Assembly (NCBI GenBank): GCA_964431555.1
Contig: CAYSJW010000009.1
Location: 10,413-74,412, forward strand
Length of the DNA: 64,000 nt
Origin: an uncultured Gammaproteobacteria bacterium
GTDB lineage: Bacteria > Patescibacteriota > Microgenomatia > UBA8517
Direction of reading: 5' to 3'
The notes under the pieces were generated by a model. That model had not been told where the DNA came from. It was given only the letters and a program-made list of their open reading frames with translations, and searched no databases. How positions within the stretch are numbered: position 1 is the first letter of the stretch; the number at the start of each line of letters is the position of its first letter. The translations under genes and the position numbers were made by a program. This document shows, piece after piece, positions 2,319-58,783 of the stretch.

Positions 2319-3971
2319 ATGCAAAGGTGTTTTTTTAATTTCCCAAAAAAATATCTAACCGAAACAATATTATTTATTTTATTTTTTCTCTTCTCCAATC
2401 TTATAATGTGGAAAACATTCAGATTAACTCCAGAAGAAAACCTCCAAATTGCAACCAAAGCATGGAGTGATTTTGCCGCTACAATACCTCTTATCCGTTC
2501 ATTTTCTTATGGAAATAATTTCCCTCCTGAATATCCAATTTATGCAGGCCCACCTATACGCTACCATTTTTTCTTCTTCATGATTGTAGGATTATTAGAA
2601 AAATTGGGTATTCCACTTGATTTGGCCTTGAATAGCTTAAGCACTCTAGGGTTTTTTTTACTACTTTCTGCTATCTATTTAGTGGGTAAAACTATCTTCA
2701 GAAGCAAGGCTATCGGAATCATTTCGACTGTTCTTTTTCTATTTAACGGATCGTTTGCTTATTTAGAATTTTTCAAAAATAATCCGCCATCACTTAAAAC
2801 CATTTCAGATATCATCGAAAACAGAAATTTTTCCTCCTTTGGCCCCTATGATGGAAGAATTGTTTCTGCTTTTTGGAATCTAAACGTATATACAAACCAA
2901 AGACATCTTGCACTGGCTTATTCTTTATTTATACTTTTACTTATCCTCATCTACAAATACTCGACAAAACTAAAAGTTTTTAATTGGTACAAAAGCTTTA
3001 TTTTAGGATTTTTTTTAGGATTAACTCCATTTTTGCACTTTAGTGTTTTTGTTATGTCTGGAGTGAGTCTGTTAATCTTCTTAATCATCTTTCCAAAAAT
3101 AAGGATAAAAATTTTTACTGCAGGAACTATCGCTCTACTTTTGGCAATTCCACAGTACCTTTATATGGGCCAATCAGAAGTGGCGGTAAAATTTTTCAAA
3201 CCCGGATACTTGATTGAAAACCTCTCCCTTTTCAACTTTATAAAATACTGGTTTTTAAATTTAGGATTGACTACTCTTTTAGCACCCATAGGATTTTTAC
3301 TTGCAACAAAAGAGCAAAGAAAAATCTTATTACCCTTCTTAGCATTCTTTCTTATCGGTAATCTTTTCCAATTCACACCAGATATGCCAACCAATCATAA
3401 ATTCTTCAATCTATTTCTAATAGGAGTCAACTTTTTCACTGCACTTTTTTTATACAAGACCTACACAAAGAATGCTTTAGGAAAGGTTTCAGTAACAATC
3501 GTCTTTCCATTTCTTATACTCAGTGGCATAATAGATTTTTTCCCAATAGTCAACGATAGATATATAACAATTCAGGATATACCCAATAACAAAGTGGCAA
3601 AATTCATAGCAGAAAATACACCGAAGGATTCTGTTTTTTTAAACTCCTCATATCTTTACAATCCTGCATCAATAGCCGGAAGAAAAATATATATGGGCTG
3701 GCCTTATTTCGCTTGGTCAGCAGGATATGATACAAACGCAAGGAAAGAAAAAATGAAAAAATTTTTTAAACCCAACAACCTTACAACTTTATGCAATCAA
3801 CTTATAAAAGAAGATATAGACTTCATAGAGATTAATAATCGTACCGGTTTGGAAGATATTGAAATTAATGATCAATTTTTTGAAAATAATTTTATTGATA
3901 TCTACAAAAGTGAAGCATCTTATACTAAGATATACGATGTTAAAAAATCATGTCAATCAAATATTTACTAA
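2319..3971 (+). CDS. Polytopic membrane protein (>=10 TM), probable GT-C-type glycosyltransferase-like protein with a C-terminal soluble domain
   Basis: ORF track. Many hydrophobic helices and a C-terminal ~120-aa hydrophilic domain. Sits in a cluster with other GT-C-like genes and an LCP gene. Family assignment not certain. Confidence 0.4.
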   Translation: MQRCFFNFPKKYLTETILFILFFLFSNLIMWKTFRLTPEENLQIATKAWSDFAATIPLIRSFSYGNNFPPEYPIYAGPPIRYHFFFFMIVGLLEKLGIPLDLALNSLSTLGFFLLLSAIYLVGKTIFRSKAIGIISTVLFLFNGSFAYLEFFKNNPPSLKTISDIIENRNFSSFGPYDGRIVSAFWNLNVYTNQRHLALAYSLFILLLILIYKYSTKLKVFNWYKSFILGFFLGLTPFLHFSVFVMSGVSLLIFLIIFPKIRIKIFTAGTIALLLAIPQYLYMGQSEVAVKFFKPGYLIENLSLFNFIKYWFLNLGLTTLLAPIGFLLATKEQRKILLPFLAFFLIGNLFQFTPDMPTNHKFFNLFLIGVNFFTALFLYKTYTKNALGKVSVTIVFPFLILSGIIDFFPIVNDRYITIQDIPNNKVAKFIAENTPKDSVFLNSSYLYNPASIAGRKIYMGWPYFAWSAGYDTNARKEKMKKFFKPNNLTTLCNQLIKEDIDFIEINNRTGLEDIEINDQFFENNFIDIYKSEASYTKIYDVKKSCQSNIY

Positions 3972-5379
3972 AAAAATAAAAATTAACATTAACACCTTAT
4001 TTCCCCTTTGTATTTTTTCTTCATTATATTCATCCTCTTTTGGCCTGATTCCCTACCTTGATGGAGGTATTGACTTCGTCAAAAGTTTTGATTTTTTTAG
4101 TGGAGGGTTTAAAAAACTTTTCCAAAACTGGGTCTCTGTACACCCTCCAGGAAAAGAGTTTATAAGCCTACTATTATTTTCAACTTTAGGCATTAACAAG
4201 TTCTCATATAGTTTAATAGGATTAGTATTTGGAATAATTGGCATTATATTATTTCATCAATTTGTATTAAAATTATCCGACAAAAAAATAGCAAACTTTG
4301 CTTCTATTCTCTTAGCTGCAAATCCACTTTTTATATCTGTAGGAATATTTAGTTTAACAGATTATCTACTTGCAATATTTGTCATTGGCTCATTTTATTT
4401 TTATTTAGAGAGAAAATGGTTTCTCATGACAATCTTTTTAAGCTTCGCATTCCTAACCAAAGAAACTGGTATTTTATGTTCAATATCGATAGGATTAGTA
4501 GAACTGACTCTTAACAATAAAAAACTCATCAAGAAACGGGTTCTCTTTTTAAAATTTCTAGCGAGTATATTATTCCCCTTCTTACTATTTTTAATTTGGT
4601 ACTTATTCCTTAAACTTCACAGTAAACCTTTCTGGACTGACTGGAATTTTTCAGAAACATCTAGCAAAGGAAGTTTATATACTATTATTCACAACATATT
4701 ATCATTTTCATTCCTCAATAAATATGCCTATCAAAATTGGTTACATCTTTTCTTTCTTAACTTTAACTGGGTTTACTGGTTATTAATAATTGTAGGATTG
4801 TTAATCTTTATCAGAAAAACATTAAAAAATAAAAGATACACGAAGATTACTAAATCAGAAAAAACAAAGTTATCAATAACCCTGTTCTTTCTTTTCTATA
4901 ACGTTATTGCACTCTCTTATCAAACTTTTACAATACCAAGATATATATTACCCTGCGTACCGATTCTAATTCTTTGGGTTTCTTCATCAATAAAGACAAT
5001 TACAAAATTTCTAAAGATAAAGAATTTTTATTTATATTTAATAGTTCCTATTTTTTCAATAAACGCTGTTTCTCTTTTTTTCTCCCTTGATCCGATATCC
5101 TCCAGAGTTTGGGGGAAGGAAAAAATATATGGCGAAGAAATATACTCCCTAAGAAAACACCTAGCAGGAAATGATGGGATTACATACAACCTACAATATG
5201 TGACTATCACAAGACGGCGTACTAAAGATATCCTTAATTCGGCTAAAAGTGGTAATATCATATCTAGCGACTGTAGCTGGATTTTTCCCGACCCTAGAAA
5301 TGACAAGAGAATATTACAAGCTCTTAAAATAAATATTGACATAGAAAAACCTTGTTTTAACATAGGCTACTTAAGATAA
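3934..5379 (+). CDS. ArnT/PMT-family (GT39/GT83-like, GT-C fold) membrane glycosyltransferase
   Basis: ORF 3859..5379 overlaps the upstream gene, so an internal start (Met at 3934, MLKNHV…) or a non-ATG start after 3971 is likely. Polytopic. Motif HPPGKEFISLLLF is typical of ArnT/PMT_2 enzymes. Basic residues in loops. Confidence 0.5.
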   Translation, partial: TMLKNHVNQIFTKKIKININTLFPLCIFSSLYSSSFGLIPYLDGGIDFVKSFDFFSGGFKKLFQNWVSVHPPGKEFISLLLFSTLGINKFSYSLIGLVFGIIGIILFHQFVLKLSDKKIANFASILLAANPLFISVGIFSLTDYLLAIFVIGSFYFYLERKWFLMTIFLSFAFLTKETGILCSISIGLVELTLNNKKLIKKRVLFLKFLASILFPFLLFLIWYLFLKLHSKPFWTDWNFSETSSKGSLYTIIHNILSFSFLNKYAYQNWLHLFFLNFNWVYWLLIIVGLLIFIRKTLKNKRYTKITKSEKTKLSITLFFLFYNVIALSYQTFTIPRYILPCVPILILWVSSSIKTITKFLKIKNFYLYLIVPIFSINAVSLFFSLDPISSRVWGKEKIYGEEIYSLRKHLAGNDGITYNLQYVTITRRRTKDILNSAKSGNIISSDCSWIFPDPRNDKRILQALKINIDIEKPCFNIGYLR

Positions 5380-19176: not shown

Positions 19177-20670
19177 ATGATCGAGAAATTTATAGTTAAT
19201 CACGAAAGAGGTGTTCAAAGAGCGCTTGAAATCTTACCGGGTTTTTTTTCTTGGAACTTAATACTATTTCCTTACTGGGGAATTTTCCTAGTACCCAATT
19301 TAGTTGCCTATTTTGTGCTCGCCTTTAACATCTATTGGTTTTATCAATCTCTAACTGTTGCTTTATCCTCAATTATCTCTCACATTCGCATACAAGCTTC
19401 AATAAAATATGACTGGATTTCAGATTTAAAATCCTTTCCCGATTGGAAAAGGGTTCATCATGTGGTAATTATTACTACCTACAAAGAACCTCTTTATATT
19501 CTTGAAAGAACCATCAGATCTTTAGCAAATCAAACTTTACCAAAAGATCAAATCAGTGTATGTCTTGCAACAGAAGCGGCCGAACCGGAAGAAGAAAGAA
19601 AAAATAAAGTTAGATTATTAAAAGAAAAATTCGGAAAAATATTTAAGAATTTCATTGTAACAGTTCACACCCTCAAGCCTGGGGAAGTAAAAGGTAAAGC
19701 ATCTAACGAACGTTTTGCAGCAATTTGGGTAAAAAATTACCTAATAAACAAAAAAAGAGAAAACATAAACTACATAACAATAACCAGTTGCGACGCAGAT
19801 CATAAATATCATCCGAACCATTTTGCAGCCCTTACCTTTAAATTTCTTGATTCTCCTGAAAGATACCTACGCTTCTGGCAGGCAGCGGTCATGTTCTACA
19901 ACAACATTTGGGAACTGCCTGCAATAACTCGCGTTCCAAATACTCTCATGTCAATTTGGAACCTTTCACAACTACCCAGAAGAGATAGACTAATTAATGC
20001 TCAAAATTATTCCCTGTCTCTCAAACTTTTAGATGAAATAGGTTATTGGGATCCAGACAAAATTCCAGAGGATTGGGGAATATTCTTCAAAGCTTTTTAT
20101 CAAAAAAATGGAAAGGTTGAAGTAGAGCCAATCTACCTACCCTTATATGCAGACGCTGCACTATCAACCTCATTCTTTAAAACTCTCAAAAACCAATATG
20201 AACAAATAAAAAGATGGGCTTGGGGTGCTAGTGACGATCCTTGGATTATTAAAAATTATTTTTTAACAAAAAATGTTCCGTTTTGGGATAAAACAATGAG
20301 ACTTATTGGAGTCATCTGGGCACATTTTCTATGGCCGGTTAATTGGTTTGTTATCACGCTAGGACTCACTGTCCCCATTATCCTTAACCCAGCTTTTGGA
20401 AGAACAATATTGGGCTATACAATTCCAAAATTTTCATCTTTTATCCTCTCCATAACACTAATTTTCCTGACTTTTATGTTGATTTTAGATAACATCTACA
20501 AACCTAAAAGACCAAAAACTTTTCCTATCTGGCGAGCGGTTATCATTCCTTTAGAGTTTGTTTTAATGCCAATTGCCGGATTCTTATTTTCAGCACTCCC
20601 CGGCCTTGATGCCCATACAAGATTAATGCTTGGCAAATATATAGAATACAGAGTTACAGAAAAAGTTTAA
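19177..20670 (+). CDS. Processive family-2 glycosyltransferase (cellulose/chitin/hyaluronan-synthase-like) with flanking TM helices
   Basis: VIITTYKEP, GKASN (KAGN-like), DxD in TSCDADH, QIKRWAWG (QxxRW). TM helices at both ends. Confidence 0.65.
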   Translation: MIEKFIVNHERGVQRALEILPGFFSWNLILFPYWGIFLVPNLVAYFVLAFNIYWFYQSLTVALSSIISHIRIQASIKYDWISDLKSFPDWKRVHHVVIITTYKEPLYILERTIRSLANQTLPKDQISVCLATEAAEPEEERKNKVRLLKEKFGKIFKNFIVTVHTLKPGEVKGKASNERFAAIWVKNYLINKKRENINYITITSCDADHKYHPNHFAALTFKFLDSPERYLRFWQAAVMFYNNIWELPAITRVPNTLMSIWNLSQLPRRDRLINAQNYSLSLKLLDEIGYWDPDKIPEDWGIFFKAFYQKNGKVEVEPIYLPLYADAALSTSFFKTLKNQYEQIKRWAWGASDDPWIIKNYFLTKNVPFWDKTMRLIGVIWAHFLWPVNWFVITLGLTVPIILNPAFGRTILGYTIPKFSSFILSITLIFLTFMLILDNIYKPKRPKTFPIWRAVIIPLEFVLMPIAGFLFSALPGLDAHTRLMLGKYIEYRVTEKV

Positions 20671-20966
20671 TTTTTTAAAATAGTTATCATTAATACATTT
20701 TGTAATTGCCAAGATAAAAAATTAATAAAGTTTAAATAATTATTCTTTAAAAAAAACAATAAATTTTTAATCTGTCCCCTATTAAAGATGAAAATCCTAT
20801 AGTTTATAGCCATTTTATACGCCAAACTCCAGTTTCTTTTTTCACAGTTATCCACATTTTTTTAAATCAATGTGCAGATGTGAAAATTAGTAATTTATCA
20901 GTAGGAAGAAATTTAAAAATTCATATGTTTTTATACAATTTCGCTTTCTATTATCCAACTACTTAT

Positions 20967-21647
20967 TTAAAAATCGTAAAGCAATGGTTGATCTTCGTAA
21001 TAAATAGTCGATATCTCCTTAATGGCTTTAAAATCATTTATGGTAATTAACTTCTTGTCTACCAATATTAAATCTTTATCTTTGAGTTTTTTAAGCTCAA
21101 TGCTAGCAGTTTCTCTTGATACACCCGAAAGATTTGCAATATCACTATGCGTCTGCGGAATAGGAATTTGAATTCTATTTTCACCTACCGTCTTACCAAA
21201 TCTCCTAGCCAGTAAAACTAAAGAGGATGCCACCTTTTGAGTTGAGTTAGAACGAATCAAATATTGAGTTCTTATCATAAAACCCTCCAGACCAGAACTC
21301 ACTCTTTTTGCAAAGTCAAATAAAACATCTTTATTATTTTTGATAAATTCGTGAACTTTATGAGTAGGAGCTTTTGCAACAACAATATCAGTTACCGCTT
21401 GAAAATAGTAACTATTTGTTTTATCTGCAAGAGTCTCGGTTATCGGAATTAAATTATAAGGTTTATAAATATTAATAGTCAGCTCTAGTCAATTATCATT
21501 TAAAGAGTAAGATTTGATATATCCTGAATAAAGATTGTAAATATAGGCAAGAGGCTCTTCTGGCTTTATTAAAATCCAACTTTTGGGATATTTAAGCTTG
21601 GGATATTGCGAATAAAAATTATCTATTTTTTCCTGAACCAAATCCAT
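20967..21647 (-). pseudogene. Crp/Fnr-family transcriptional regulator interrupted by a single in-frame TGA (minus-strand codon 53, + coords 21489-21491) at a conserved Gly position
   Basis: ATG at 21647 gives MDLVQEKIDNFYSQYPKLKYPKSWILIKPEEPLAYIYNLYSGYIKSYSLNDN-TGA-LELTINIYKPYNLIPITE… (cNMP-binding beta-roll). This continues in the same frame into the ORF-track 111-aa ORF, which carries the Crp-type HTH (RETASIELKKLKDKDLI). Confidence 0.5.
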
Positions 21648-21650
21648 AAT

Positions 21651-21669
21651 TTGACACTAATTGTATCAA
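21651..21669. promoter_or_regulatory. Imperfect dyad TTGACACTAATTGTATCAA immediately upstream of the crp-like gene start (candidate Crp/Fnr-family operator)
   Basis: 7 of 9 symmetric positions (TTGA.C.A…T.G.TCAA). Lies in the divergent intergenic region between the crp-like gene and the fasciclin gene. Confidence 0.25.
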
Positions 21670-21744
21670 AACTTTGTAATCTAGCTCACTGAAATCGAAT
21701 ATTAATTAATATTATCATCTTGCTATTAGAAAGGGGGTGAAAAA

Positions 21745-22320
21745 ATGAGGCAATATTTAATTACTACCCTAATAGCAGTCATACTAGTTGGATTCGCTAT
21801 TTTCTATACGAAAGGCGTAAATTTCAACAATAATATGACTTACGAAAACGGTCTAAGAAGTCAAACAATTTCAAAAACCGAAATTAATAAAGTGCCTAAA
21901 GAAGATATGAATCAAAAACAAAATATAGTTGAAATAGCATCTTCAGATGAAAAATTTTCAACATTAGTTTCAGCAATAAAAGCTGCTGGATTGGTTGAAA
22001 TTCTTTCGTCAGAAGGACCATTTACTGTCTTTGCTCCAACCAATGAAGCATTCGCTAAACTTTCCAAAGAAACCTCAGACGCCGTCTTAGCCGATAAAAA
22101 ACAGCTAAAAAACATACTTATATACCACGTAGTTTCTGGAAAGGTTATGGCGAAAGATGTTGCAAAACTTGATTTGGCAAAGACTTTGCAAGGTGGAAGT
22201 TTAAAAATTAAAGTTACAGATGAAAACGTGATGGTGGACAATGCAAAAGTTATTAAAGCTGACATTGAAGCTGAAAACGGAGTAATTCATATAATTGATA
22301 CAGTCTTGATACCAAACTGA
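21745..22320 (+). CDS. Fasciclin (FAS1) domain protein, membrane-anchored/secreted
   Basis: N-terminal TM/signal. FAS1 motifs [14 protein letters not shown] and …HIIDTVLIP. Good SD (AAAGGGGGTG) upstream. Confidence 0.75.
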
Positions 22321-22386
22321 TACCAAAGCAATTATACAAAGAAGAATAAATAAGCCGGCTAAAAAGCCTGCTTATTTATTAGATCA

Positions 22387-22890
22387 CTAAATTTTCCTTG
22401 AATCATAAGCCCAGTGCAACAATGCTTGTCGCTGGCGACGCCTGCAGTTTAAATCCCCAGTTTTGCAGTGTTTCTTTATCTGAGCAATATGACGTTTCAT
22501 CATCTTCCAACGTTTTATCTGCCTTTGATCATCCAAACTTCTCCTACCCATATAATATCTGCAGTACCATTGAAACCAACCCCTCGGATCTTGCGGATTT
22601 ATCCATCCCTTTTTTTGCCAGACTGACAACGGCTGGCTTGCATCCACTCCGAAAAAATTAAGTTTTGGGTTTTTCTTTGCAGGAGACAATTTCGCTTTTT
22701 CGAACCAATTTTTAGGAAACTCTTTCCTACAATCCGTTATATACTTTCCACCAAAAACACCAAGCTCAAGCATTTGTTTGGGAGTTAATTCAGGTTTAAA
22801 TTCCGGATCAAAATTCTTGCCGACAGGTTCAGTCAAGTGATACTTGTAATTCTTTTGCATTTTATCATTAACAACAACTATTTTATTCAT
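22387..22890 (-). CDS. Conserved hypothetical protein, Trp-rich core (GVFGGKY…WQKKGWINPQDPRGWFQWY) and Arg/Lys-rich C-terminus
   Basis: ORF track 22387..22905. Start probably at the second Met (22890) to avoid overlap with the upstream gene. No confident family assignment. Confidence 0.4.
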   Translation of the reverse strand: MNKIVVVNDKMQKNYKYHLTEPVGKNFDPEFKPELTPKQMLELGVFGGKYITDCRKEFPKNWFEKAKLSPAKKNPKLNFFGVDASQPLSVWQKKGWINPQDPRGWFQWYCRYYMGRRSLDDQRQIKRWKMMKRHIAQIKKHCKTGDLNCRRRQRQALLHWAYDSRKI

Positions 22891-31872: not shown

Positions 31873-32241
31873 ATGTTTAACAAACTTTTTGCAAATTGTC
31901 TTCTGGTTAATAATTTTGAAAAATCCCTGACATTTTATCGTGACATTCTGGGGCTAGAAGTAAATAACCAAGAAGAAAAATTTGCAGATTTCAAACTTGA
32001 AGGCACAACTTTAGCAATCTTTGAAAAAGAAGCCGCAACAGCTATGTTTTCTAAAGAGTATATGAGGCATGGAGGTGGTGTTGTTCTGGCTTTTCAAGTA
32101 AAAGATCTGAACACCGCCTGCGATGAATTAAAAGCCAAGGGTGTTAATATTTTTGAGGGACCGAAGAAAACAGAGTGGGGACAGAAGGTCGCCTACTTTA
32201 AAGATCCGGACGGAAATATATGGGAGATGTCTGAATTATGA
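31873..32241 (+). CDS. VOC/glyoxalase-bleomycin resistance family protein
   Basis: GGGVVLAFQVKDLNTACDELKAKGVNIFEGPKKTEWGQKVAYFKDPDGNIWEM. Confidence 0.75.
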   Translation: MFNKLFANCLLVNNFEKSLTFYRDILGLEVNNQEEKFADFKLEGTTLAIFEKEAATAMFSKEYMRHGGGVVLAFQVKDLNTACDELKAKGVNIFEGPKKTEWGQKVAYFKDPDGNIWEMSEL

Positions 32242-45587: not shown

Positions 45588-48113
45588 CTACCAAAAAATA
45601 CGGGCTTTCAAATCCCCGCTTGGTAAGGCATTATATCTAAAATCTTTATTCTCAGTCAAGCAATCTTTATTATCAGTTTTAAAATCAACCCCATCAGGCA
45701 AATTCAAAAAAAGATCAACGGGATAATTTTTTACTCCAGATTGTTTACTTAAAAATAATCTATATTCACCTTTCTTTTCAAAATCGATTAATAATCTATT
45801 CTCCCAAATAAAAGATATTTTCCTTAATTCGTTAGGCTTTAACTCTAAATATACACCCGCTTCTTTTGTTTTTTTACCTGCAATAATATCAGGAATTAAA
45901 TACTTTTCTTCATCAACAGATTCTACTTTTACTGAAGAAAAACTTGTTTCATTACCGGCAAAAAATCTCAAGTAAACTTTATAATCTTTCTTTCCTGTAT
46001 TCTTAACATAAAAATCAAATCTACCTTTTAACACTTTCTCCTGAAAATAAATGCTCACTTTAGCCATTCTTGAAACAGAAGACGAAACTTCCCCCTCAGA
46101 TGTTTCTATCAAAGAAAAATAATCCAAGAAGCAATTTGCAATACAATCCTCCTTTAATATTTTTTTTTCTAAATCAGTTTTTAAATGATTGTTTCCTAAT
46201 CCTTGATCACTAAAGTAAATTTGGATATCCTTTTGATTAAATCCTTCATATATTTTTTTGATTATTTTTAAACCCTTATCATTTATCAAAATACCCTTAT
46301 TTACTTTATCCATTTCATTAACTAACTCATTTATAAAATTTTGATTTATAAATAATGTTCCATCAATCTTTGTCTTAAACTCCTTATTTATAAAATTAGA
46401 AACATCTAAGGCAGAATATGATATATCAGGATTCCAGTTAAACTTATCAAGGTTGGTATAACTATCTTTAAAATATTTTTTTACAACCACTGGTTTTTCA
46501 AAACTACCTAAAATTTTATTATTTAATTCATATTTGTCTTCAATTAAGAGACTGGCAATAGAAAAATTATGGAGAATAAGAAAAACAAACTTTTCTATTA
46601 CTCCCCCAGTGGGTCTCAAATACGAGTTATCTTGCAAAACTATTAAATACTTTCTTTCTCCTTCATAACCAAGCAATAAAGTTAAATTTTTTAATATATC
46701 TCCAAATTTATAACTTAAATTTTTTAATTTATTTGTTTCCGAATTGTCAAAAATAACAAATTTTCTTAAAATTTCATTATCTTTATCACTTAGGTATTCC
46801 GCTTCTAAGAAACTAATGTCTTCATATAAATCATTCATATCTATACTTATTGAATTTATATCAGAAAAATTCAATCTTTCTTTATTATTAAAAGATTTAA
46901 CAATTAAAATTAATTTTTCTAAAATACTTAAATATTCTCTATACGCTTCTGATTGAAGTTCTAAAACTAATGTGGGTTTTGTAAAAATATTATAATAATT
47001 ATCTAATAAATATATCTGTTTTAAACCATTTGAAATTTTATTAGAACATTTAGAAAAAAATAGTGACATATTTGTTGAGTATTTAGATAAATAAAAAAAA
47101 TCATTTTCATAAAAAAAATTAGATAAGTGTAAAAACGATAGCGATAATAAACATGATCCTACGGGAAATAAAAATAAAAATATAATAATACCTAAAATTA
47201 ATTTACTGGTTTTATCTAATAAAGTTTCTTTTATTTTATTAAAATAATCTTTAACCTTTGTTACAAACCCATCTTTGTATTTTTTTCTTTTTTCTTTATC
47301 TTTAAGTAATTCTTTATATACTCTATTTAATATTATTTTTGGTCTCTTTTTAATTATGATTTCCTCATCATATTTAAAAATGTTAGTATTTCTATTCTTA
47401 ATATTTAACGATTTTATATCAACACCGATAATTTCCACTAATCTATTCAACTTTATTTTTTTACCTATAATAAATACTGCTTTTCCAAAATAACTTATCG
47501 AAAATAATATTTTTATAATTAATGTAACCAAATCTTCATCCAATAAAGGATAAAAAAACTCATTACACCTTAAATTAATGTTTTTGTTTAGAACTATATT
47601 TTTTAAAACTTCATATAAATCACTTATATAAAAATCCTCGTATTTTGGTGTTATTAAATCACTGTAAAATATTACTGCACCAAATGATTTTAATTCTTGA
47701 AATTTCTTATAAATATAATCCTCATCAATACTTTTTAAATTAAAATTATTTAGTCCATTTATCAAAAATGTGGATTTTGTCTTAAAAATTTTATTTATAT
47801 ATTTATATAAATTGATGTTTTTGTTTAAACTTTTTATAAATTTATTTTTGTTCTCATACTCTTTATCTTTAAATTTATTAAAATAAATTAAATAATTTAT
47901 ATTTGTTTTATTTCTGATTAATTCCTTTATATTTTTTATAATATTAACATCATTGTTAGAATAACTATTCATTAAATCTTTTTTATCATTTTTGGTAATT
48001 AAATAAACCTTTAAGTTATAATTCAAAAGGTTCTTAATTAATAATTTGTTAATACTACTAATATCTGAAAATATTAAAATACTATTTTTCTCAGTAATTT
48101 TACTTTGTAACAT
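45588..48113 (-). CDS. Large Asn/Lys/Ile-rich membrane protein (841 aa); C-terminal part DUF4012-like (RPTGG motif), N-terminal degenerate Rossmann-like region
   Basis: Central TM (LILGIIIFLFLFPVGSCLLSLSFL). C-terminal …LQDNSYLRPTGGVIEKFVFL…. N-terminal ILIFSDISSINKLLIKNL…VYLITKND. Encoded in the most AT-rich tract of the window. Confidence 0.4.
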   Translation of the reverse strand: MLQSKITEKNSILIFSDISSINKLLIKNLLNYNLKVYLITKNDKKDLMNSYSNNDVNIIKNIKELIRNKTNINYLIYFNKFKDKEYENKNKFIKSLNKNINLYKYINKIFKTKSTFLINGLNNFNLKSIDEDYIYKKFQELKSFGAVIFYSDLITPKYEDFYISDLYEVLKNIVLNKNINLRCNEFFYPLLDEDLVTLIIKILFSISYFGKAVFIIGKKIKLNRLVEIIGVDIKSLNIKNRNTNIFKYDEEIIIKKRPKIILNRVYKELLKDKEKRKKYKDGFVTKVKDYFNKIKETLLDKTSKLILGIIIFLFLFPVGSCLLSLSFLHLSNFFYENDFFYLSKYSTNMSLFFSKCSNKISNGLKQIYLLDNYYNIFTKPTLVLELQSEAYREYLSILEKLILIVKSFNNKERLNFSDINSISIDMNDLYEDISFLEAEYLSDKDNEILRKFVIFDNSETNKLKNLSYKFGDILKNLTLLLGYEGERKYLIVLQDNSYLRPTGGVIEKFVFLILHNFSIASLLIEDKYELNNKILGSFEKPVVVKKYFKDSYTNLDKFNWNPDISYSALDVSNFINKEFKTKIDGTLFINQNFINELVNEMDKVNKGILINDKGLKIIKKIYEGFNQKDIQIYFSDQGLGNNHLKTDLEKKILKEDCIANCFLDYFSLIETSEGEVSSSVSRMAKVSIYFQEKVLKGRFDFYVKNTGKKDYKVYLRFFAGNETSFSSVKVESVDEEKYLIPDIIAGKKTKEAGVYLELKPNELRKISFIWENRLLIDFEKKGEYRLFLSKQSGVKNYPVDLFLNLPDGVDFKTDNKDCLTENKDFRYNALPSGDLKARIFW

Positions 48114-50501: not shown

Positions 50502-50636
50502 TTAAACCAGTCTCTTTCTTTTTCTTAATATCCTTCTTTTAATAACCTTCTTTCTCCTTTTATCTTTAGATCTTGACCTAAAACCATGAACTCTTGCTCT
50601 CTTGATTCGACTTGGTTTGTAAGTCCTTTTTGGCAT
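50502..50636 (-). CDS. rpmH: Ribosomal protein bL34 (44 aa; below ORF-track length cut-off)
   Basis: Minus-strand translation from the ATG at 50636: MPKRTYKPSRIKRARVHGFRSRSKDKRRKKVIKRRILRKRKRLV*, stop at 50502-50504. rnpA starts 4 nt downstream. Confidence 0.85.
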   Translation of the reverse strand: MPKRTYKPSRIKRARVHGFRSRSKDKRRKKVIKRRILRKRKRLV

Positions 50637-54235: not shown

Positions 54236-56836
54236 TTATGGTATACCAAAACCCACTACCCTTGCCCAGGAAAGGTTTTCTACCCCGACTCCATCGTTTT
54301 CAAATATTAAGTAACCATCTTTATATCCAGAGTTTGCTTGTACAAAAACTATGGCCTGTTTCTCTATAACATGATGGACAATAGCAACATGATTTGTTCT
54401 TAGTGGCCCACCATATACATAAAAAAATATAATACTTCCGGTAGGTATGTTTTTTGAAGTGGCTTGTGACGCGTCTATAAAACGCCCGTTATTTCTAAAC
54501 CAATTTTCTAGGATATTAGACATATAGTATTCTGGAATTTCATGTCCGGTCTCTTTCCAAGAAATCACTGCCAGTTGTGTACACCAGAAAAGGTTTCTAG
54601 CCTCGTTGGATACTTGATCTCTGGTTGGGTTAGGATTGACTGCGAATAATTCTTCATTGAAAAGTTGAGGATAACTTGGTGGATAATAAATTTCGTCTCT
54701 CGGAAAACCACCCAGTAACTGATTTAATTTTTCTGAATCATCAGGAGATCTGTTCCAGAAACACCAAAATCCCTGATAAAGGTCTGCTGTAATTTCCCAA
54801 GCTCTCTTGGCAATCCCGGTTGCGCCATTATTATCAAAGGAAATAGAACCCTTTTCGTAAGTACATTCGACTGGAAATTGTCCAAACCCTGCAGGAAAAT
54901 CTGCTCTTTCGAAACCACCGAAAGGAACCACAAATGCACTATTGTTAATGATTATTAGAATAAAAATTACCAAAAAAAGAAATGTAATAATACTAATAAT
55001 AACTGGAATACTTATTGTTATTACAATACTTGCAATTACAGCAGATAAAAATGCTGGTATACCAGCTATTACACTTGCAATTGATCTTAAACCCAATGTT
55101 GTTAAAAATATTCCGCCTGAAATAAGTGCAGGAACTACTGAACCTATTGCCAAAAATGCAACCATTGCGATTCCAGAAATTTCTTTAAGTTGCGATTTTA
55201 AATCTTCCTTGCCTGTTATAAACTTAAGTATTCCGCGAAAGATTTTGGTTAAAAACTTTAAAATTTTTGGAAGAATGTCAGTAATTATAGTAATTATAAG
55301 GGCGATGATATTTCCAATAATGGGCACTAAAGTTCCTAAGGCTTGTGCTACTGTTGTAATTCCTGCTTTAGCGGCGATTTTACTTCCTTGTTTGATTAGT
55401 TCTTTGCCGGCCTTTTTTAATGATTCTGTAATGATTTTTTTAGCCGCGTCTTTAGCCACAGATATACCTGTTTTTTCTAAAAGTTTTCCAGCCTTTTCTT
55501 TAACAAAATCAACTCCTTTATCAAAAAGGGGCTTAAGAAATCCATTATCTCCGGTTTGAAGAGAGATCTGGTTGGGTTTTTCTGCAGTTTGCGGAGAATC
55601 GGTGGCGGCAGGCTGTATTGTTATTGATACATTTGGTATTCCTGCTTCTTTCCTGAATGCGTATGCCAATTCGGGATTTGATTTTTGTAAAGTTTTCAGG
55701 ATCCACGCCGAAAGCTGTAAGTCTTTTTCTTGCTGTTGTGTTATTAAATTGTTTTTAGCAACTCGATCGACTTCATTGGAGAATTGTTGAGCGTCAACTC
55801 CCAAAGGTAAAAGGTGTTTTGTTGCAACTTCGGCACTAGCTGATAGTTGTTCCGATGTGGTTCCCGGGGGAATTACCCCTTCGCTTATCAATAACGCTGT
55901 TTCTTCGGGTGTAAAGGAAATTTTACCAGTTCCGTCGATTACTTTTTCCCTGAAATTGATAGTTATCTGGGAAGGTTCGATAGCAGGAATAGTTGGAGTT
56001 GTAGTAATTATAATATTTTGCTGTGTTTCCATAGATTTTGATCTTTTTCTTTGTTTTCTTTCTGCCTTAAGCTGTTTTTCGTCAAGCTCCTCGGCATAAG
56101 CCCTATTTATATTCGACCACCTTTCCTGCCTGATGTTATATTCTTTTATTTCTTCCGGTGTTAATTCATCTTTATCTTTGCCTAGTTGTTGAAGATATCT
56201 TTCAGGGTCATATTTACGCACTTGCACCAAATACGCGGTTCTTAAATCTAGTTGTGTTGCACCGGGGGTTACCCCCAGAAGTTTCCAATTCTCACCGTGA
56301 TTGATCGGCCCGGCTTTTTTGCCTATCCACTTTTTTTGTTTACGGTCGAGCGTGTCTTTCCATTCGTCCTGACGCTTATATCTTAAGTGTTCGTGATAAT
56401 GATCTCTTCTGGTTTCGTCCCCGAGAACCTTGTGGGCTTTTTCTAAATAATAAAGAGTAGTTTTAGCACTTGCGAGACGTTTTTTAATTTCCGATTCGGA
56501 AAGTCCTTGTTCTCTTAGTTTTTTTTCTAAAACATCCGGTTGAAGTGATGCCTTTCTTTTTTTATAAGCTTCTTCGATCTCTTTTTGCGTTGCGTTTTCA
56601 TCTAATCCAAGCAGATCGTAGTAATCAGGCTCTTCGGGAAGTTGTCCGACACTTACAGAGTTGGCCTTACGAAGCCGGGCTTGAAGAACCTCGTATGCCA
56701 ATTCAACGCGCATACCAAGCGGGATTTTGGGATCAATAAGTGCTCCCTCAGAGGTTATTACAAAAGCTCTGGTACACAACTCCTCATAATCAAGATTTTT
56801 AGCCTGTACTAGTAATTTTCTTGCTTCATCACTCAT
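54236..56836 (-). CDS. Multidomain T4SS-associated membrane protein: two degenerate J-domain-like repeats (N-terminal, cytoplasmic) + VirB6/TrbL-like polytopic TM bundle + C-terminal CHAP peptidoglycan hydrolase domain
   Basis: J-like 1: DYYDLLGLDENATQKEIEEAYKKRKASLQPDV…KAHKVLGDETRRDHY (HPD->QPD). J-like 2: NWKLLGVTPGATQLDLRTAYLVQVRKYDPERY. Five or more TM helices (…IIALIITIITDILP…, …ITISIPVIISIITFLFLVIFILII). CHAP motifs NLFWCTQLAV (Cys) and TNHVAIVHHV (His). Confidence 0.6.
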   Translation of the reverse strand: MSDEARKLLVQAKNLDYEELCTRAFVITSEGALIDPKIPLGMRVELAYEVLQARLRKANSVSVGQLPEEPDYYDLLGLDENATQKEIEEAYKKRKASLQPDVLEKKLREQGLSESEIKKRLASAKTTLYYLEKAHKVLGDETRRDHYHEHLRYKRQDEWKDTLDRKQKKWIGKKAGPINHGENWKLLGVTPGATQLDLRTAYLVQVRKYDPERYLQQLGKDKDELTPEEIKEYNIRQERWSNINRAYAEELDEKQLKAERKQRKRSKSMETQQNIIITTTPTIPAIEPSQITINFREKVIDGTGKISFTPEETALLISEGVIPPGTTSEQLSASAEVATKHLLPLGVDAQQFSNEVDRVAKNNLITQQQEKDLQLSAWILKTLQKSNPELAYAFRKEAGIPNVSITIQPAATDSPQTAEKPNQISLQTGDNGFLKPLFDKGVDFVKEKAGKLLEKTGISVAKDAAKKIITESLKKAGKELIKQGSKIAAKAGITTVAQALGTLVPIIGNIIALIITIITDILPKILKFLTKIFRGILKFITGKEDLKSQLKEISGIAMVAFLAIGSVVPALISGGIFLTTLGLRSIASVIAGIPAFLSAVIASIVITISIPVIISIITFLFLVIFILIIINNSAFVVPFGGFERADFPAGFGQFPVECTYEKGSISFDNNGATGIAKRAWEITADLYQGFWCFWNRSPDDSEKLNQLLGGFPRDEIYYPPSYPQLFNEELFAVNPNPTRDQVSNEARNLFWCTQLAVISWKETGHEIPEYYMSNILENWFRNNGRFIDASQATSKNIPTGSIIFFYVYGGPLRTNHVAIVHHVIEKQAIVFVQANSGYKDGYLIFENDGVGVENLSWARVVGFGIP

Positions 56837-56860
56837 TTTTCCTAATTTAATATTACACCA

Positions 56861-58783
56861 TCATTTGTTTTCTTGGATGATTTTCAGCGTTGTTCTTAAT
56901 GGAATATTTGATTGTTCGACCAACTCTTGTGGTTTGGTTGTTATCAATTTATGTTCTTCGGGAGAAGCAACTACAGTTATGGGTGCATGATTATTGCCGG
57001 CAAAAAAAATACCCTCTCCAATGTTTGCTCCAAGTAAAAGCTGTCTTTCACCTTGTGAGAGGTAAAATACATCGCCAACCTTGTCTATAGCGGCAGGAGA
57101 TTGCTTTAGAAGAACCCTTAAAGCACTATTTGTAACAATTGCCTTGCCAATATCTTGGTTTAGAAAATCTTCAACGTCCTGGGTGATTGTAGTGAGTCCT
57201 AGATAATATTTTCTTGCGCGTTTAACAATACTCCACAAAAACTGAGCTGAATCTGAAAACCTCATCATATGCCACGCCTCATCAACAACCAAAAGTCTGG
57301 GTCTAAGATTTTTCTTGATTCTGGTCCAGATAAAATCCAGAATAACAAACATAGCAATTGGTCTTAAGGCATCTTGGAGCTCCCGTACGGAAAAAACAGT
57401 AAAGGGGTTGTTTATTTCAATATTTGTTTGTTTGTCAAAAATTCCCACAAAGCTTCCTCTGACAAATTTTTCAATTCTTGCTGCCAAATCTAATGCGTCA
57501 GGAGTTTCCATTCCGATAAGTATTTTATAAAGATCTTCCATTAAGGGAGGTTCTTTGGTTTGGGTTTCAGGATCTTGAGTAATCCCCTTGGATTTATAGG
57601 TTGCAACTAAAGCCCTGTCAAGAAGAGCCTCTTGTATTGGAGTTATTTGTCCCATGATGACTTTAAAAAGGGAATGTAAAGAAAGAATTTTAAGGCCAAG
57701 GTTGTTTTCACCCTCTTCATAGACTTGGGAAAGATCAAAAGGGTTAATTTTTGATGGAGAGTTGAAAGAAAATGAAATATTTACCCCTCCTACCGCGTTG
57801 GCTAGGTTTTTATACTCACCTTCAGGATCGATTATGATTATTTCTGTCCCAAGCATTAATGATCTTAAACTTTCCAATTTGACAAAGTAGCTTTTACCTG
57901 CGCCTGAAGTTGCAAAAACAGTCATGTTGGAATTTTCCAGTGAGAATCGGTCGAAGATGATAAAGGATCCGTTTTGGGTGTTTATCCCATATAGAACTCC
58001 TTTATCAGCAGATAACTCCGCACTGGTTAGGGGAAAAGTCGTGGCCAAAGATGATGTATCCATATTTCTGGTTATGGAAAGACGATCTAACCCAAAAGGG
58101 GAGGTTGATAAAAGACCATTGTCCATATCTAAGGTGGCGTGTTTAGCTACAACTAAAAGAGAACCAAGCGTTGCCTCAACCTGCTTGGTAATATGGTTTA
58201 ATTGCTCTAGATCAGAAGCTCTGATGGTGATATAAAAACCAAATTCAAAAAAGTGTTCGGCTCCCTTAACAAGTTCTTCTTGGAAAAGTCTTGCATCTTC
58301 AAGTTTAGCCTCGGTTGCAGGATCAACTATTTTTCCTCTTTCAATGTCGGTGGCGATTTCAGCTTCCATTTCGGCAACCTTTCTCATAAGATCATCTAAA
58401 ACGCTTTTACCTTCAACGGGGTATATAAAAAATGAGATATCCAAAGAACTATTGAAGTTGATTATTTGCTCTAACCAGCCTGGAGATACAAAGCGCGGAT
58501 ATCCAGAAACAAAAAGAGTTCTAAGGTATACATTATTGATTTTTAGATAGTCCATTTCAATTTCTACCATTTGTGGTGCTACAACATCGAGTATGTTGAG
58601 ATTTTGAGAATTAACCGCCTCAACGGGATTAATTATTTTCGGTTTGTCGACTATTACTTGTTTAGCCTTATCTGAATTTAAAGCATCTTTCTCTTTGAGA
58701 GTTTTTTCTTTACTTTGGGTAGAATCTTTTGGAAGATTGTTAATTGTTTTTGTTTTTGGTTTAAAAAAATTAAGTTTTAACAT
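56861..58783 (-). CDS. VirB4/TraC/TrbE-family type IV secretion ATPase (main body)
   Basis: Walker A VFATSGAGKSYFVK, Walker B LLVVDEAWHMM, Arg finger/sensor region. N-terminal YLRTLFVSGYPRFVSPGWL typical of Gram-positive VirB4 (PrgJ/TcpF-like). Confidence 0.75.
   Translation of the reverse strand: MLKLNFFKPKTKTINNLPKDSTQSKEKTLKEKDALNSDKAKQVIVDKPKIINPVEAVNSQNLNILDVVAPQMVEIEMDYLKINNVYLRTLFVSGYPRFVSPGWLEQIINFNSSLDISFFIYPVEGKSVLDDLMRKVAEMEAEIATDIERGKIVDPATEAKLEDARLFQEELVKGAEHFFEFGFYITIRASDLEQLNHITKQVEATLGSLLVVAKHATLDMDNGLLSTSPFGLDRLSITRNMDTSSLATTFPLTSAELSADKGVLYGINTQNGSFIIFDRFSLENSNMTVFATSGAGKSYFVKLESLRSLMLGTEIIIIDPEGEYKNLANAVGGVNISFSFNSPSKINPFDLSQVYEEGENNLGLKILSLHSLFKVIMGQITPIQEALLDRALVATYKSKGITQDPETQTKEPPLMEDLYKILIGMETPDALDLAARIEKFVRGSFVGIFDKQTNIEINNPFTVFSVRELQDALRPIAMFVILDFIWTRIKKNLRPRLLVVDEAWHMMRFSDSAQFLWSIVKRARKYYLGLTTITQDVEDFLNQDIGKAIVTNSALRVLLKQSPAAIDKVGDVFYLSQGERQLLLGANIGEGIFFAGNNHAPITVVASPEEHKLITTKPQELVEQSNIPLRTTLKIIQENK

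Follow-up and report, generated by a model that had tools for sequence, protein, structure and literature searches.

An in-frame TGA at an invariant glycine codon of a Crp/Fnr-type regulator gene in Woesebacteria: probably a young, lineage-specific nonsense mutation

What does a single in-frame stop codon mean when it falls on a glycine that every relative of the protein shares, in a part of the bacterial tree where other lineages read that same codon as glycine? The question is raised by a gene for a Crp/Fnr-family regulator in a stretch of 64,000 nucleotides from an uncultured bacterium (hereafter the window, to which all coordinates refer). The initial annotation of this DNA left three options: a recent nonsense mutation, a sequencing error, or programmed read-through. 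Here, we examine whether the stop is real, how UGA is read in this genome, what orthologous genes carry at the same site, and what has become of the regulator and of the module to which it belongs.

The interrupted gene and its family

The Crp-like frame that the initial annotation had described, broken only by a TGA at codon 53, holds: the coordinates, the Pfam matches and the structural alignments all agree (Table 1). Across the site the translation runs KSYSLNDN-stop-LELTINIYKP and the nucleotides AAT-TGA-CTA, so that the base following the stop (+4) is C. The frame is unchanged on the two sides, and the 173 codons downstream contain neither a frameshift nor a second stop. Under standard decoding the list of open reading frames keeps two fragments only, the 52-aa N-terminal piece and a 111-aa HTH piece that starts at GTG (20967..21302). 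When codon 53 is translated as Gly, however, the product matches cNMP_binding (PF00027) with 35.8 bits against a gathering threshold of 27.5 at residues 19-105, and HTH_Crp_2 (PF13545) with 49.8 bits against a threshold of 27 at residues 137-211; the NCBIfam models for Fnr, CRP and NtcA also match over their full length, but below threshold. Solved chains of NtcA, FNR and CRP align end to end with this translation over about 180-190 residues, and the TGA lies opposite a conserved Gly of these structures ('eaGeE', 'eqGdE').

Table 1. Features of the regulator locus and of the divergent gene
Feature	Position	Strand	Remarks
Crp/Fnr-family regulator gene	20967..21647	-	ATG at 21647, TAA at 20967; 226 codons plus TAA, one in-frame TGA; orthologues 226-227 aa, intact
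In-frame TGA, codon 53	21489..21491	-	Invariant-Gly site in beta4-beta5 hairpin turn; orthologues have GGN
52-codon N-terminal ORF left by standard decoding	21489..21647	-	Called as a 52-aa gene in two JGI samples
Internal-ATG (codon 124) ORF, 103 aa	20967..21278	-	End of dimerisation helix plus HTH; putative product
-10-like TACAAT, putative regulator promoter	21660..21665	-	12 nt to ATG
Degenerate CRP-like palindromic box (predicted)	21675..21690		AGTGAGCTAGATTACA on the regulator strand; T1A plus unique C11A, A13T
-10-like TATCAT, putative fasciclin-gene promoter	21713..21718	+	Starts 22 nt past box
Fasciclin (FAS1) domain gene, 191 aa, intact	21745..22320	+	Divergent conserved neighbour; likely regulator target

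The predicted fold is that of a Crp protein. An AlphaFold2 model of the nearest orthologue from the protein database search, 79% identical to the window protein (P0001), has a pLDDT of 90, and its best Foldseek matches are GlxR, Mycobacterium tuberculosis CRP, E. coli CRP and NtcA, with TM scores of 0.75-0.85. Like E. coli CRP, Mtb CRP/Rv3676, C. glutamicum GlxR and cyanobacterial NtcA, the protein combines a beta-roll with a long dimerisation helix and a C-terminal HTH, while its identity to solved Crp/Fnr proteins is only 20-25%. Residue 53 of the model sits in the turn that links strand 44-49 to strand 55-61; in E. coli CRP the beta4-beta5 hairpin bears activating region 3, used at Class II promoters. 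The 226 codons include no cysteine at all, and the regulator is therefore not an Fe-S sensor of the FNR type, which holds its [4Fe-4S] cluster by cysteines. No Arg is visible by eye in the cassette region ITETLADKTNSYYFQA, where the equivalents of Arg82/Ser83 make the cAMP contacts in CRP. A functional Crp/Fnr member has an uninterrupted coding sequence, and in contrast to such intact members the window gene is cut by the stop at codon 53.

A protein database search returned 27 full-length orthologues of 224-252 aa (mostly 226-227) with 58-79% identity, from Patescibacteria MAGs labelled Woesebacteria, Paceibacterota, Saccharibacteria or 'Patescibacteria group'. Judged by these alignments, the gene is a Woesebacterial member of a Patescibacteria-wide Crp/Fnr-type orthologue group. 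One group member, 49% identical (P0028), lies on a contig of 1777 nt (L007, JAGXNV010000355.1) in a bin named 'Candidatus Heimdallarchaeota archaeon', more probably through mis-binning of a CPR contig than because the gene is archaeal.

A comparison of orthologues, which the initial annotation had proposed as a check, turned up glycine at this position throughout and a stop in none. Column 53 is Gly in 27 of 27 orthologous proteins of the alignment and in 28 of 28 full-length orthologues examined altogether, every one from Patescibacteria, and it is still all Gly once more distant Crp proteins join the alignment. The statement that Gly is the canonical residue here is thus borne out both by the orthologues and by NtcA, FNR and CRP. 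None of the eleven orthologue loci compared as DNA has TGA at the site: in eight the codon is GGG, GGT, GGC or GGA, and L017, L018 and L020 give intact translations. Locus L021, whose protein is 80% identical and which shares synteny with the window on the fasciclin side, reads GAC-GGA-TTG-GAG-CTG where the window has AAT-TGA-CTA-GAG-CTG. Thus, one of the two closest relatives has GGA at codon 53, and the window also uses GGA for Gly more often than any other codon (219 of 497).

Since both the relative and the codon usage of the window favour GGA, which differs from TGA by one base, one G>T transversion is enough to account for the stop, and we infer that the ancestral codon was GGA. The coincidence with glycine, described as striking at the outset, is then weaker than it sounds: the location at an invariant Gly is confirmed, but the emphasis was overstated, because GGA, the Gly codon used most, is among the few sense codons that one base change turns into TGA, and about a third of all columns are highly conserved (79 of 226, or ~35%, at a level of at least 90%).

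How old might such a change be? The window sequence deviates at 4 of the 79 highly conserved columns, within the orthologue range of 0-9; with the frame intact as well, either the mutation arose recently or some selection still acts on the gene. The window lineage has 20 unique amino-acid changes compared with 8 for L021 (p = 0.036), and compared with 14 when P0001 serves as the sister (p = 0.39), so that the apparent acceleration in rate is weak and hinges on the sister sequence chosen. No intact allele from the same species turned up in the collections searched: identity in the protein database search did not exceed 79%, the GTDB representative genomes yielded relatives at 49-66% only, and a scan of JGI metagenomes yielded relatives at 63% only.

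A real stop, read as a stop

The TGA is present in all three assemblies of the locus that we recovered, the source contigs having been located by means of the neighbouring genes. JGI metagenome 3300022548 (Ga0212092_1000766) has the same sequence as the window, and JGI 3300010284 (Ga0129301_1000138) differs from it by 3 SNPs, among them 20085 C>T and 20268 A>C, in a stretch of ~11 kb that includes the gene; none of the three lies inside the gene. In both JGI records a 52-aa gene is called together with one of 103 or 111 aa. The Logan assembly of SRR5216256, whose contig (L016) corresponds to window 20119..22480, matches the window at 100% identity along 2.4 kb, with the TGA likewise in place. 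Because the same TGA stands in three assemblies, a random error of sequencing or assembly is very unlikely, and TGA is the consensus allele of the sampled population. Assembly error was set aside on the same ground, the three assemblies being concordant and one of them carrying SNPs nearby.

One catalogue entry seems at first sight to tell another story. The Logan protein catalogue holds a 226-aa 'intact' protein (P0035) with Trp at position 53, as though a TGG allele existed. Its underlying DNA is the contig L016, which reads TGA, and the TGG allele is therefore rejected in favour of a table 4 translation. This short, AT-rich contig was evidently gene-called with table 4, and entries of this kind can mask nonsense alleles or mimic TGG.

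If the stop is real, is it read as a stop? The initial annotation had argued from long uninterrupted reading frames that UGA does not encode Gly here (code 25), and this argument was right and is made stronger by the use of stop codons: the 53 non-overlapping long ORFs of the window end 32 times in TAA, 13 times in TGA and 8 times in TAG, and several of the TGA stops form 4-bp ATGA overlaps with the next gene, as at 32238 and 49103. Coding density in the window under the standard bacterial code is 92%. Translating TGA as a sense codon merges no real genes of the window other than the two Crp halves and the pair 56861..58783 / 54236..56836. The latter was considered as a second case of read-through and rejected, as it joins a TraG-like ATPase to a DnaJ/CHAP protein, members of unrelated families. 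In this stretch of the minus strand (54236..58783) a TraG/VirB4-like P-loop ATPase of 640 aa with a TGA stop is followed, after 24 nt, by an 866-aa DnaJ+CHAP gene in the same frame; we judge that these are two genes whose common frame is a coincidence. The regulator is accordingly the only gene split by TGA in the 64 kb. Codes 25 and 4 were both rejected for the window on these grounds, TGA terminating 13 of 53 long ORFs and the merging test joining only the Crp halves. The window contains a single tRNA gene, for tRNA-Cys(GCA), and no release factor gene.

Among bacteria, UGA is known as a glycine codon only from Gracilibacteria and Absconditabacteria (PMC8629427). The present genome resembles theirs in belonging to a CPR bacterium of low G+C with a UGA at a Gly position, and differs from them in that TGA is a frequent true stop and occurs in frame only once in 64 kb. 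Moreover, the best named relatives of its GroEL (83-89% identical) are all Candidatus Woesebacteria. Transfer of the gene from a code-25 donor was considered too, and is unlikely because synteny with the fasciclin gene and with the DUF1295 block, common to code-11 relatives with GGN at the site, points to vertical descent.

Several other features of the window deserve mention. The segment 48196..53502 is the neighbourhood of a replication origin, with rpmH (50502..50636), rnpA, yidC, a jag-like KH/R3H gene and an RNase H-like gene on the minus strand and dnaA and dnaN on the plus strand, and the minimum of the cumulative GC skew falls near 50-52 kb. Next to it lies an 841-aa ORF with a DUF4012 match (45588..48113), in a region where the G+C content falls to 0.205 (46-48 kb) compared with ~0.33 elsewhere. 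The reading frames 2319..3971 and 3859..5379, the second with a TTG start and a PMT_2 glycosyltransferase domain, are in different frames and have 113 nt in common, and the true start of the second gene is probably further downstream. Finally, a small gene of the Trp-repressor family (PF01371; 17054..17407) lies upstream of metG, according to precomputed Pfam matches on the source contig.

The predicted operator and the divergent fasciclin gene

In the orthologue loci the regulator gene is accompanied by a divergent gene for a fasciclin-domain protein, which is at times preceded by a small DUF378 gene. A 16-bp palindrome, TGT(T/G)AGCTNGCT(A/C)ACA, occurs in one copy upstream of the regulator in every one of these loci (ten distinct: L001-L006, L017, L018, L020 and L021). 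In nine of the ten the box is perfect or has only the clade-specific change T1A, and mismatches number 0-1 in the orthologue loci as compared with 3 in the window, where two of the changes to the conserved CRP-like operator TGTKAGCTNGCTMACA are unique. The family operator is a palindrome of the TGTGA-N6-TCACA type known from CRP, and in locus L006 it is literally TGTGAGCTAGCTCACA, with the CRP half-sites on either side of GCTAGC; it differs from CRP sites in that the central 6 bp (GCTNGC) are conserved. Further copies of the operator within the window do not exceed chance.

On the fasciclin side of the box, a TAnnnT hexamer begins exactly 21 nt past the box in 10 of 10 orthologues and 22 nt past it in the window. 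Because the hexamer starts 21 nt past the box, the centre of the box would lie at about -41.5 of the fasciclin-gene promoter, and at Class II CRP promoters the activator site is centred at -41.5. On the regulator side, orthologues have a -10-like hexamer 3-9 nt past the box, and this hexamer is 7-8 nt from the ATG in all orthologue loci but L006, compared with 12 nt in the window; the short spacing suggests that regulator transcripts of the family are leaderless.

These arrangements point to a simple scheme for the intact family. A dimer would bind the 16-bp palindrome some 41.5 bp upstream of the start of fasciclin-gene transcription, in the geometry of a Class II activator, and the same bound dimer, lying over the spacer/-35 region of the regulator's own promoter, would repress the regulator. 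Thus, to go by promoter geometry, the family appears to activate the divergent fasciclin-domain gene from about -41.5, and activation may well be coupled to autorepression. We found no description in the literature of this regulator or of this module in CPR bacteria.

The fate of the regulator

The simplest explanation for the interrupted gene is that a G>T transversion turned the Gly53 codon, ancestrally GGA, into TGA in this lineage. Since TGA is a normal stop in this genome, translation would end after 52 residues; the effector-binding, dimerisation and DNA-binding parts would not be made, and the regulator would therefore be inactivated. We consider it likely that the TGA is such a real, lineage-specific nonsense mutation and that the locus holds a young pseudogene or crippled gene, ordinary in kind. 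In that case the initial annotation was correct in the first of its three options, while the second is contradicted by the three assemblies and the third lacks any signal.

The alternatives, in descending order of plausibility, are a leaky stop, an HTH-only product, an artefact, UGA as glycine, and selenocysteine. Could enough protein be made in spite of the stop? The base at +4 is reported to modulate termination, and a C in that position, as here, to raise read-through (PMC5289835); for E. coli K-12, read-through of UGA at 2-4%, with Trp-tRNA, is reported (PMC10570021). Given the UGA-C context and this basal level, a small amount of full-length protein with Trp at position 53 is conceivable: near-cognate decoding by Trp-tRNA in competition with RF2 would yield at most a few percent of full-length chains, most likely with Trp for the turn glycine. 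If this sufficed for function, as it might for a low-copy autoregulated factor, the gene would be kept under purifying selection, which would suit the 173 open downstream codons, the retention of all invariant residues and the fact that TGA is the consensus in two samples. The open frame fits a young pseudogene equally well, however, and Trp at this site is likely to be harmful because Gly53 is invariant and occupies a tight hairpin turn; to judge from the modelled turn it would probably damage the protein. Considering also that no orthologue has a stop here, that operator and promoter carry lineage-specific changes and that amino-acid changes are in mild excess, we regard a functional leaky stop, together with the selection that it implies, as improbable, if the most serious of the rivals. 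A conserved, programmed event is a different matter. The 81 nt that begin with the TGA fold at -3.9 kcal/mol, against a mean of -5.3 for shuffled sequences (z = +0.6), there is no Rfam match near the site, SECIS included, and a conserved read-through stop is absent from all eleven orthologue loci at the DNA level. Frameshifting, selenocysteine insertion and conserved programmed read-through are thus unsupported, and the remark in the initial annotation that a SECIS-like element was not apparent agrees with both the folding test and the Rfam search. Selenocysteine in particular has nothing in its favour beyond the in-frame UGA itself, whereas homologues have Gly and never Cys or Sec at this position, which is a structural turn and no redox site, and we give this reading next to no credence.

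Alternatively, translation could restart at the internal ATG at 21278 and produce a 103-aa, HTH-only protein that binds DNA independently of a ligand or competes for the site. An SD-like GGAGG is indeed visible 5 nt upstream of that ATG, and gene callers choose this ORF, which stands as a gene in public annotations (P0036). The GGAGG, however, is a by-product of the codons for the invariant LEGFM residues (it is made by those for LEGF), and orthologue L001 has a weaker GGAAGG there. Proteins of the Crp family bind their palindromes as dimers, and the fragment is without most of the dimerisation helix; the box itself is degenerating, and a functional short product seems very unlikely. An artefact that hides a true GGA is less credible still: it has the prior plausibility that any MAG lends it, and the three assemblies may stem from related samples with possibly overlapping reads, but the two JGI assemblies with the same TGA differ in consensus at 3 nearby SNPs, the Logan assembly was made with other software, and the site lies outside any homopolymer. 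Nor do we give much weight to the idea that the gene is intact because UGA is read as Gly, through code 25 or a suppressor tRNA-Gly(UCA). The exact placement at an invariant Gly and the precedent of two other CPR lineages, Gracilibacteria and Absconditabacteria (PMC8629427), speak for it; against it stand the 13 of 53 long ORFs that stop at TGA, several with ATGA overlaps, the single in-frame TGA in 64 kb at such a coding density, the identity of the organism as a Woesebacterium, the one tRNA in the window being tRNA-Cys(GCA), and vertical descent among relatives with GGN at the site, so that this reading is hardly tenable. The same slight likelihood attaches to a compromise in which the lineage decodes UGA ambiguously, mostly as stop and partly as Gly, with a suppressor of the tRNA-Gly(UCA) kind, or as Trp at an unusually high rate.

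A lineage-specific nonsense mutation, by comparison, asks for little that is out of the ordinary. As in other bacterial pseudogenes with a single nonsense change, there is one point change relative to intact orthologues, the frame is otherwise open, and the event is confined to one lineage; compared with ordinary examples of that kind there is nothing unusual about it, the invariant-Gly site following from the proximity of GGA to TGA. On the evidence of the sequence, regulator function has probably been lost. Mild additional signs of decay are the two unique changes in the window's operator, its altered promoter spacing and a number of unique amino-acid substitutions somewhat above that of its relatives; those in operator and promoter amount to little, however, and may be tolerable. 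Taken together, the facts from the window fit, without proving it, the view that function was lost fairly recently and that decay has begun to show.

The direct import of the finding is small: a point mutation would have disabled a single regulator in a single population of uncultured Woesebacteria. The case does serve as a worked example that code 25 need not be the cause when a CPR genome shows TGA in frame in place of Gly, and it shows how public protein catalogues can acquire a spurious 'intact' version, here with W53, from gene calling with table 4. If UGA decoding in this lineage did prove to be ambiguous, it would represent an intermediate toward the reassignment known from Gracilibacteria and Absconditabacteria, with the Crp-type gene as a case of tolerated or even regulated read-through. 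Possibly more useful is a by-product of the analysis, the outline of a Patescibacteria-wide regulator with a defined 16-bp operator, a fixed, Class II-like spacing and apparent leaderless autoregulation. This module of regulator, operator and fasciclin-domain gene would be among the few regulatory modules of CPR bacteria that can be read straight from sequence.
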